64,000 nt of DNA from Dictyostelium discoideum (lineage: Eukaryota): contig CM000151.3 of NCBI GenBank assembly GCA_000004695.1, positions 6,528,001 to 6,592,000 on the forward strand, given 5' to 3'. Below, piece by piece: positions 30,113 to 30,769 of this stretch. How positions within the stretch are numbered: position 1 is the first letter of the stretch; each line of letters starts with the position of its first letter. The notes beneath the pieces are model-generated. The model worked only from the letters and a program-made list of their open reading frames with translations, was not told the origin of the DNA and made no database searches. The position numbers and the translations under genes are program-made.

Positions 30113-30661
30113 ATGAAAACAGCAAAAACAGACCATTATTTATTCAAAATTCTTTTAGTTGGTGATGGTAATGTTGGAAAGAGTTCAATGATTGAAAGAT
30201 TTATTGATGATACATGGAATGATACATATATAGTAACTAGAGATCAAACTTTTAAAGAGAAATATATTTATTTAAATGAAAATACAATTAAACTTCAAAT
30301 TTGGGATATGGAAAGGTTAAAAATGGTATACCGTAGTGCACATGGTATTATAATTGTTTTCGATTTCACTAATCAAGATTCATTTAATAACATTAGAAGA
30401 TGGTTATCTGAAATTGAAAGATATGCACATGAAGAGGTAAATTTATTATTGGTTGGAAATAAAATTGATTTATATGATCAAAGAGTAATATCAACTGACC
30501 AAGTCAACTTATTAATAGAACAGTTAAATGGCATTTTTAATTTTAATTTGAATTTTATTGAAGTCAGTGCAAAAAAAAATATAAACCTTGAACAATCTTT
30601 CATCACAATTACAAATGATATGTTAAATCGTTATTTGGAGGGTTCTAAAAATACAACCCAA

Positions 30662-30714
<53 letters not shown>

Positions 30715-30769
30715 TAATAATAGTAATAATAAACCAAGAAAGAAATCATCATTTTGTATAAATCAATGA
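30113..30769 (+). CDS. Rab1-like small GTPase paralog (218 aa) with a deleted or degenerate switch II and a C-terminal CaaX box (CINQ); a likely pseudo-GTPase
   Basis: It carries G1 ([11 protein letters not shown]), G4 (LVGNKIDL) and G5 (SAK) motifs and a Rab-family signature [16 protein letters not shown]. Where [22 protein letters not shown] is expected, it reads IWDMERLKMVYRSAHG, so about 7 aa including the DTAGQ motif are missing. It ends poly-N..KPRKKSSFCINQ*. Confidence 0.65.

Follow-up and report, generated by a model that had tools for sequence, protein, structure and literature searches.

Locus and gene identity

The window analysed here is a stretch of 64,000 nucleotides of Dictyostelium discoideum (GenBank assembly GCA_000004695.1, contig CM000151.3, positions 6,528,001 to 6,592,000 of the forward strand). 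It carries a gene, very probably rabW, for a small GTPase of the Rab1 type in which part of switch II is deleted and the nucleotide-binding residues are retained, both in all six genomes in which the gene was found; the product is a candidate pseudo-GTPase under purifying selection. Positions are those of the window, unless a locus number (L) is given for another genome. The gene and its upstream neighbour are as follows.

30113..30769, forward strand: complete single-exon open reading frame (ORF), 218 codons and TGA, on AX4 chromosome 2; very probably rabW (DDB_G0276295).
28293..29348: DDB_G0276297, AB hydrolase, directly upstream of this ORF.

The ORF is as described in the original prediction, and the protein letters quoted there are exact. 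Of its neighbours, two ORFs have products identical to AX4 proteins of the chromosome 2 record (8.48 Mb). Its GC content (22.7%, against 9–11% in the flanks) and the stops in the two other forward frames (17 and 50) argue that it is coding and not a chance reading frame. DDB_G0276295 is entered as rabW among the 74 D. discoideum Rab/Ran genes in Table S1 of Forbes et al. 2021 (PMC8923023); as this locus number adjoins that of the neighbouring DDB_G0276297 and the family is the same, the ORF is very probably rabW, and hence already catalogued. The same source gives rabW no orthologue in D. purpureum, D. lacteum, P. pallidum, and D. fasciculatum (Ddis-only) and notes a massive species-specific amplification of GTPases.

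Neither the protein collection nor the gene-position index used contains the exact protein, and the gene was for this reason suspected of being unannotated in AX4. That suspicion was rejected, as the identical 218-residue gene is also called in a second D. discoideum assembly (GCA_054883475.1). The absence is regarded as a blind spot of the database, since orthologues with long poly-Asn tracts are absent there as well. Proteins with long Asn tracts are apparently missing from this large collection, and the AX4 protein and several orthologues were thereby hidden from homologue searches.

G domain, motifs, and family placement

The features of the ORF are listed below in order of position; all are on the forward strand.

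30161..30184: G1 (P-loop) GDGNVGKS, residues 17–24, intact; G17, G22, K23, and S24 invariant in six orthologues.
30227..30253: switch I YIVTRDQTF, residues 39–47; Mg-coordinating Thr42 retained and invariant; RDQTF in place of RabF1 IGVDF.
30290..30307: strand beta3 KLQIWD, residues 60–65; RabF2 and D65, the sole remaining residue of G3, invariant.
30308..30346: truncated switch II MERLKMVYRSAHG, residues 66–78; 7 residues shorter than in Rab1.
30458..30469: G4 NKID, residues 116–119, intact; N116, K117, and D119 invariant.
30566..30574: G5 SAK, residues 152–154, intact and invariant.
30659..30730: hypervariable poly-Asn linker, residues 183–206; confidence of the structural model (predicted local distance difference test, pLDDT) below 50.
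30731..30766: polybasic patch and CXXX box KPRKKSSFCINQ, residues 207–218, the C-terminus.

Residues 12–171 match the Pfam family Ras (PF00071) with E = 1.7e-39 and a score of 135.4 bits (cut-off 21.6). The closest relatives of known structure, as found with HMMER, are Rab1A, Rab1B, and Ypt1 (E about 1e-43 to 1e-38), with 44–47% identity to Rab1; scores by subfamily are 140–151 bits for Rab1A/B, 124–131 for Rab8, 120–123 for Rab3, and 113–115 for Rab35. Rab1 appears on these scores to be the closest subfamily, and descent from Rab1, as proposed in the original prediction, would fit.

The motifs by which small GTPases and Rab proteins are recognized are present in part. G1, G2, G4, and G5 were found; G3 is reduced to D65, followed by M-E-R where DxxG is expected, and the set of five G motifs is thus incomplete. 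Among the Rab family motifs (RabF1 IGVDF, RabF2 KLQIW, RabF3 RFrsiT, RabF4 YYRGA, RabF5 LVYDIT; according to Pereira-Leal and Seabra), RabF2 is perfect, RabF5 similar (IVFDFT), RabF4 partial (VYRSA/VYRGA), RabF1 replaced (RDQTF), and RabF3 deleted. The double cysteine of Rab proteins (CC, CXC, or CCXX) is missing; a single cysteine stands at position -4 (CINQ). By these motifs rabW would be classed as Rab-derived, yet outside the RabF motif definition. Compared with Rab1/Ypt1, the G1, G4, and G5 motifs, the G2 threonine, and RabF2 are identical and the order of strands and helices is equal in the structural model; RabF1 has diverged, and the Rab1 tail is CC or CXC, that of rabW a single-cysteine CXXX box behind a polybasic patch.

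An AlphaFold2 model, made from an alignment of 101 sequences (mean pLDDT 75, pTM 0.69), keeps the six-strand, five-helix order of the G domain in full and places a helix of 6 residues (70–75) where helix alpha2 would be. The poly-Asn linker and the tail are disordered in the model; switch I has the lowest confidence (pLDDT 53–69). Comparison with the PDB by Foldseek returned Rab1 first, then Rab8, Rab3, and Rab35, with target-normalised TM-scores of 0.70–0.88.

Shortened switch II

From D65 to G78, rabW has 14 residues (D-MERLKMVYRSAHG) where canonical Rab1 has 21. The HMMER alignment with Rab1A places the difference in two gaps, of 3 and 4 residues, within switch II directly after the conserved WD. 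With them went the catalytic glutamine, the glycine of G3, RabF3, and roughly one half of helix alpha2; WD is followed by neither Gly nor Gln. Both the shortening of switch II and the loss of these two residues had been proposed in the original prediction and are borne out by the alignment.

The catalytic glutamine and the G3 glycine are missing from all six orthologues. Across the truncation the DNA of the six genomes aligns without a single gap, and the variable codons differ mostly synonymously; the short segment ERLKMVYRG is kept in five of the six. DNA coding for DTAGQ was found neither inside nor beside rabW. Among the approximately 375 Rab-family proteins retrieved, the 14-residue switch II is confined to rabW orthologues; variants of G3 by substitution are not rare there.

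Conservation and selection

Five further copies of rabW were located, with the flanking gene or homologue matches as starting points:

L006:7862-8623, D. discoideum ACTFIR.
L005:7485-8168, D. cf. discoideum ACTFIY.
L002:6001-6603, D. cf. discoideum ACTFIZ (protein P0001).
L004:7627-8232, D. citrinum.
L003:6001-6597, D. dimigraforme.

In all six genomes, AX4 included, the gene is an intact, intron-less ORF with the motif IWD[MIL][EQ]R[LS]KMVYR[SG], and four of the five copies outside AX4 are syntenic, beside the AB-hydrolase gene. The ratio dN/dS of rabW (Nei-Gojobori) is 0.21–0.61, with dS up to 0.65; of the four pairs tested, three give a ratio significantly lower than 1 (Fisher's exact test, P down to 2e-11).

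Invariant columns make up 54% of the G domain in the six orthologues. All 13 residues that contact the nucleotide or Mg2+ (G17, G22, K23, S24, F30, T42, D65, N116, K117, D119, S152, A153, and K154) are among them, for which a hypergeometric test gives P = 2e-4; of the interswitch residues 48–65, 15 out of 18 are invariant. From these alignments rabW appears to be a fast-evolving yet functional gene, in which the selected parts would be the nucleotide pocket and the surface formed by the interswitch and the short switch II. The intact ORFs, the dN/dS ratios, the invariant nucleotide-binding residues, and the recurrence of truncation and tail in the other genomes speak for a selected gene and against a pseudogene or a missed intron. 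The divergent paralogue named as one possibility in the original prediction is thus recovered as a conserved gene under purifying selection.

The Asn-rich linker between G domain and tail is a hypervariable trinucleotide tract, from a few residues in D. dimigraforme to about 55 in D. discoideum ACTFIR.

Two observations on these genomes stand apart. The D. dimigraforme gene model ACTA71_004639 (P0002, 290 amino acids, L003:6001-7625) is over-extended; the true stop is at 6597, giving a protein of 198 amino acids that ends in CLNQ. A tRNA-Arg(TCT) gene at 7615-7689 begins about 15 bp beyond the last exon of the model and is in part overlapped by the recorded span 6001-7625. The AB-hydrolase gene of the ACTFIR, ACTFIY, and ACTFIZ assemblies differs from that of AX4 with dS of about 0.15–0.21, far above the expectation for conspecific strains; these three assemblies look like cryptic species or deep lineages.

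C-terminal tail and predicted prenylation

The tail follows the pattern K.KKS..C[IVLS]NQ in all six orthologues: position a1 takes I, V, L, or S, and N at a2 and Q at X do not vary. It had been called a Ras-like CaaX tail in the original prediction. A single-cysteine CXXX box behind a polybasic patch is indeed present; the box is not a canonical CaaX, as a2 is Asn in every orthologue. A free a1 with fixed a2 and X is the pattern that prenyltransferase recognition would predict.

In a comprehensive yeast farnesyltransferase (FTase) CXXX screen (PMC10320760), Q is favoured at X, and a2 tolerates all residues but D, E, K, and R. The rules given there exclude D, E, K, and R at a2 and K, P, and R at X, and take an HM score of at least 3 to predict prenylation; the tail of rabW agrees with the rules for both residues. 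CANQ, used here as a proxy for CINQ, CVNQ, CLNQ, and CSNQ, is listed in the same screen with HM scores of 4.34 (Ydj1) and 5.0 (Ras), the shunted motif CASQ with 4.63 and 4.87, and the canonical CAIM with 4.1 and 19.9. The proxy thus seems to resemble the shunted Ydj1 motif CASQ and not CAIM, and by this analogy rabW would most likely be farnesylated without cleavage of aaX or methylation. Like rabW, the shunted CASQ of Ydj1 has its cysteine at -4, a polar a2, and Q at X (PMC5014548, PMC10320760).

Single-cysteine CXXX tails are also found in the paralogues described below: C-x-I-N behind Lys residues in the rab1E-like proteins and CSVQ in the rabH-like protein. Since the rab1E-like neighbours with intact switch II and the rabH-like protein both carry one, the CXXX tail is a trait of the lineage and is not coupled to the deletion. 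A minority of bona fide Rab proteins, such as Rab8, Rab13, and Rab28, end in CXXX; the tail of rabW, with its single cysteine, is therefore not unprecedented among Rabs.

Paralogues, Rab cluster, and origin

An exhaustive hidden Markov model (HMM) search of 1.84 billion representative proteins gave one close cluster (P0001, 413 bits); the higher-ranking proteins beyond it all matched in several stretches (multi-domain), and the best matches in a single stretch reached at most about 180 bits. The relatives that bear on the origin of rabW lie in a Rab cluster, which in D. dimigraforme runs, in order, Rab5-like (+), rabH-like (-), rab1E-like (+, P0089), rabW (+), and amidase (-). Paralogous loci are as follows; rabH-like is an unverified working name.

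L003:4966-5655, L008:10001-10757, L009:8001-8828, and L010:8001-8699: rab1E-like.
L008:9093-9787, reverse strand: rabH-like, D. firmibasis (P0394).
L003:3915-4667, reverse strand: rabH-like, D. dimigraforme.

The rab1E-like paralogues (P0089, P0137–P0140, P0142) occur only in the D. discoideum species group. In common with rabW they have the motif NKIDL, the group restriction, and the single-cysteine CXXX behind Lys, and the D. dimigraforme copy lies directly upstream of it. They differ from it in a switch II of full length with GQ (WD[ST][VI]GQ[ED]RF), which carries an insertion of 1–3 residues. In the D. firmibasis rab1E-like copy the G3 glycine is replaced by Pro (WDSIPQERF).

The switch II of the rabH-like protein is of exactly the shortened length of rabW (LQLFDQPKGVIYYRGAH), D to H being 13 residues. 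Also common to rabH-like and rabW are EVSAK, an alpha4-beta6 loop of greater length, and a CXXX tail with Q as its last residue. Identity between the two is about 35–43%; rabH-like differs in its introns, in the loss of the switch I threonine, and in a canonical CaaX tail (a2 = Val). Alignment with dictyostelid Rab paralogues, as proposed in the original prediction, thus separated the truncated rabW from the intact-switch rab1E-like proteins and also revealed that the truncation is not restricted to rabW, rabH-like having the same length.

In neighbour-joining trees (500 bootstraps), rabW grouped with rabH-like in 90% and both grouped with rab1E-like in 75% of the replicates; when rabH-like was left out, rabW grouped with rab1E-like in 60%. 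Long-branch attraction is an alternative source of the grouping of rabW and rabH-like, with which the 90% has to be read. An origin of rabW by tandem duplication of a rab1E-like gene, considered from the adjacency in D. dimigraforme and the 60% bootstrap, was downgraded after rabH-like had grouped with rabW. As rabH-like shares the two indels and common descent is the simplest reading of this, the deletion in switch II is probably older than rabW. Together the two look like a small clade of Rabs with short switch II, which arose in the apparently ancestral Rab cluster of the D. discoideum group.

The clade is unevenly distributed. A word-index search for a rabH-like counterpart in D. discoideum gave the query itself and unrelated Rabs only, and at the cluster position neither a counterpart nor a remnant of it was found in D. 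cf. discoideum or D. citrinum. In the latter two the cluster is without rabH-like and rabW, and rabW lies about 330–380 kb away, beside the AB hydrolase. In D. firmibasis the gap between the AB-hydrolase and transmembrane-protein genes is about 520 bp (L007:19530-20052) and holds no Rab gene, and the interval from rab1E-like to the next downstream gene, a 390-residue ORF preceding the amidase (L008:10758-12254), holds no Rab remnant. The distribution is one of differential loss with one relocation.

Elsewhere in these regions, a polyprotein of the long terminal repeat (LTR) retrotransposon type (gag-protease, reverse transcriptase, RNase H, integrase) follows the rab1E-like gene of D. cf. discoideum at L009:11498-16699. 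It sits where D. citrinum and D. dimigraforme carry the amidase and marks a point at which the Rab cluster was rearranged. In the window, the intergenic region between AB hydrolase and rabW has a run of approximately 70 A, broken by two G, at 29520-29592.

Interpretation and proposed mechanism

The reading preferred here, to which we give a probability of roughly 0.5, is that rabW encodes a functional, lineage-restricted Rab1-like paralogue that binds nucleotide, has no canonical hydrolysis or switching, and is anchored to membranes by a prenyl group and a polybasic patch. A pseudo-GTPase combines the GTPase fold with loss of catalytic residues; in rabW the fold is kept in the structural model, and the glutamine and the G3 glycine are missing in six of six orthologues. 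As judged from these sequences, rabW is probably a nucleotide-binding pseudo-GTPase, a "pseudo-Rab". The designation as a candidate pseudo-GTPase in the original prediction is accordingly a legitimate one, and with G1, G2, G4, and G5 invariant in six orthologues it can be narrowed to the nucleotide-binding type. The locked nucleotide state and the decoy role also put forward there are conjectural.

All residues for guanine nucleotide and Mg2+ (P-loop, Phe30, Thr42, Asp65, NKxD, SAK) are retained. From the biochemistry of small GTPases, rabW would be expected still to bind GTP and GDP and to have no canonical intrinsic hydrolysis. The canonical response of switch II to the gamma-phosphate would also be gone, which would give a constitutive, non-cycling Rab-like protein. 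Since switch II, together with RabF3/F4, makes up a large part of the interface for Rab escort protein (REP), GDP dissociation inhibitor (GDI), guanine nucleotide exchange factors (GEFs), as well as TBC GTPase-activating proteins (GAPs), GDI cycling on and off membranes would probably be lost, and regulated membrane cycling with it. The CxNQ box would carry one prenyl group, most likely a farnesyl with aaX uncleaved, and this group and the adjacent Lys/Arg patch would hold the protein on the membrane. The conserved surface of interswitch and short switch II could then serve as a fixed, constitutive binding platform.

Counterparts of this arrangement are known elsewhere. Rnd1/Rnd3 and RhoH are constitutively GTP-bound, hydrolysis-deficient Rho proteins, as shown biochemically; Rnd proteins are farnesylated via a CaaX box, whereas most of the Rho family is geranylgeranylated. 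As in rabW, the pocket is kept and catalytic residues are lost, and the farnesylation of Rnd parallels the mechanism proposed here; the differences are that these are Rho-family proteins with point substitutions and a switch II of full length, and that rabW is known here from its sequence. EhRabX10 and EhRabX3 of Entamoeba (PMC8514894) are, like rabW, lineage-specific amoebozoan Rab paralogues whose G3 is non-canonical, and they have been put forward as pseudo-GTPases. G2–G5 are altered in them by substitution (DTQDME, TKAD, SSQ) and not by a deletion in switch II; G4 and G5 of rabW are perfect.

Several points weigh against this reading. The gene evolves approximately 10 times faster than the neighbouring hydrolase (dN/dS 0.02–0.05), and part of this could be relaxed constraint. 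At both candidate positions in D. firmibasis, the AB-hydrolase site and the Rab cluster, which were the two positions covered by the search, no rabW was found, from which it follows that at least one close relative can do without the gene. Model confidence around the switches is only moderate (pLDDT 53–79). Prenylation is argued from yeast FTase and the proxy CANQ, not from Dictyostelium enzymes. The assignment as rabW comes from adjacent locus numbers, with no sequence match behind it. The literature searched gave no data on biochemistry, expression, or localisation, and none of its main texts names rabW or DDB_G0276295; nor is rabW among the examined rows of a life-cycle proteome supplement. 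Finally, TBC RabGAPs provide both Arg and Gln in trans, and loss of the glutamine in cis does not, by itself, exclude GAP-assisted hydrolysis.

Alternative explanations

This last point leads to the view that rabW is still a working switch, in which hydrolysis proceeds by a non-canonical route, by the dual finger of a TBC protein in trans or by Glu67/Arg68 of the short loop, and in which the short switch II retunes partner specificity. It is generally known that TBC GAPs can supply the glutamine, all nucleotide-binding residues are invariant, and ERLKMVYRG is kept in five of six orthologues. Hydrolytic activity is also described for EhRabX3, an atypical Entamoeba Rab that lacks motifs (PMC8514894). 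Set against this, the glycine of DxxG, which senses the gamma-phosphate through its backbone NH, is gone, the docking surface for TBC proteins and GEFs (RabF3/RabF4, helix alpha2) is half deleted, and no Rab of such architecture is known to cycle. We regard a working switch as unlikely, while keeping it in mind.

The rapid evolution of rabW might instead be that of a drifting gene, produced redundantly when Rab genes were amplified on a large scale in D. discoideum, which has no specific function and is open only because it is young. Its dN/dS, about 10 times that of the neighbour, its absence from both candidate D. firmibasis sites, and the catalogue of Forbes et al. (PMC8923023), with massive species-specific amplification and no rabW orthologue in four other group-representative species, would agree with drift. 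An ORF that stays intact in six genomes at dS up to 0.65, when the off-frames hold 17–50 stops per 218 codons, would not, and neither would a dN/dS significantly below 1 in three of four tested pairs or the invariance of all 13 nucleotide-binding residues and of a2 and X of the tail. Drift is thus quite improbable.

Should the truncation collapse the Mg2+/phosphate site, the G domain could be a nucleotide-free scaffold, a class i pseudo-GTPase that acts as a protein-binding module. Loss of the DxxG glycine and the shorter loop could disturb Mg2+ coordination, and class i pseudo-GTPases with canonical fold, such as AAGAB, are known (PMC12490416). That class, however, typically loses G1, G4, and G5, whereas rabW keeps GxxxxGKS, NKxD, SAK, Phe30, and Thr42 invariant; with 46% of the G-domain columns variable, an invariant pocket is not easily accounted for unless nucleotide binding is under selection. 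A scaffold of this kind is very doubtful.

A more far-reaching view takes rabW and rabH-like as a conserved "switch-less" clade descended from Rab1, permanently loaded with nucleotide, anchored by farnesyl and polybasic residues, and not recognized by GDI, REP, GAPs, or GEFs, which pathogens would have driven to become an effector-resistant or decoy Rab1 in a natural host of Legionella. Legionella enzymes modify residues in switch II of Rab1, and the stretch of Rab1 that holds these residues is not conserved in rabW. The argument is that the truncation removes the stretch that effectors of the Legionella type AMPylate or phosphocholinate, and that the gene evolves fast. We lend this scenario only slight credence.

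An artefact, in which a normal DTAGQ switch II is hidden by an assembly error, a frameshift, or an intron that was missed, can be dismissed, as the ORF is continuous, its product identical in a second assembly, the length the same in five further genomes, the DNA alignment gapless, and DTAGQ-coding DNA missing in and beside the gene. The original prediction had named an overlooked intron that restores DTAGQ as grounds for refutation; none does so, and the proposal is illogical, since introns remove sequence and cannot add the seven missing codons.

Significance

Atypical and pseudo small GTPases in lineage-specific Rab expansions are already known, and rabW is an uncharacterised addition to them. 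Its practical value is modest, the feature being limited to a few closely related species. Of the approximately 74 Rab/Ran genes of D. discoideum, many are unstudied and specific to the lineage (PMC8923023), and which of the extra Rabs are real switches is worth knowing. In this respect rabW is a natural experiment, with a pocket under selection, a switch II that has lost the half serving catalysis and partner binding, and a CXXX/polybasic anchor. If its predicted constitutive binding of GTP is true, rabW would offer a model, amenable to genetics, of a Rab that does not cycle, and the pseudo-GTPase concept, best documented in Rho, Ras-like, and Entamoeba Rab proteins, would extend to a lesion of the deletion type.

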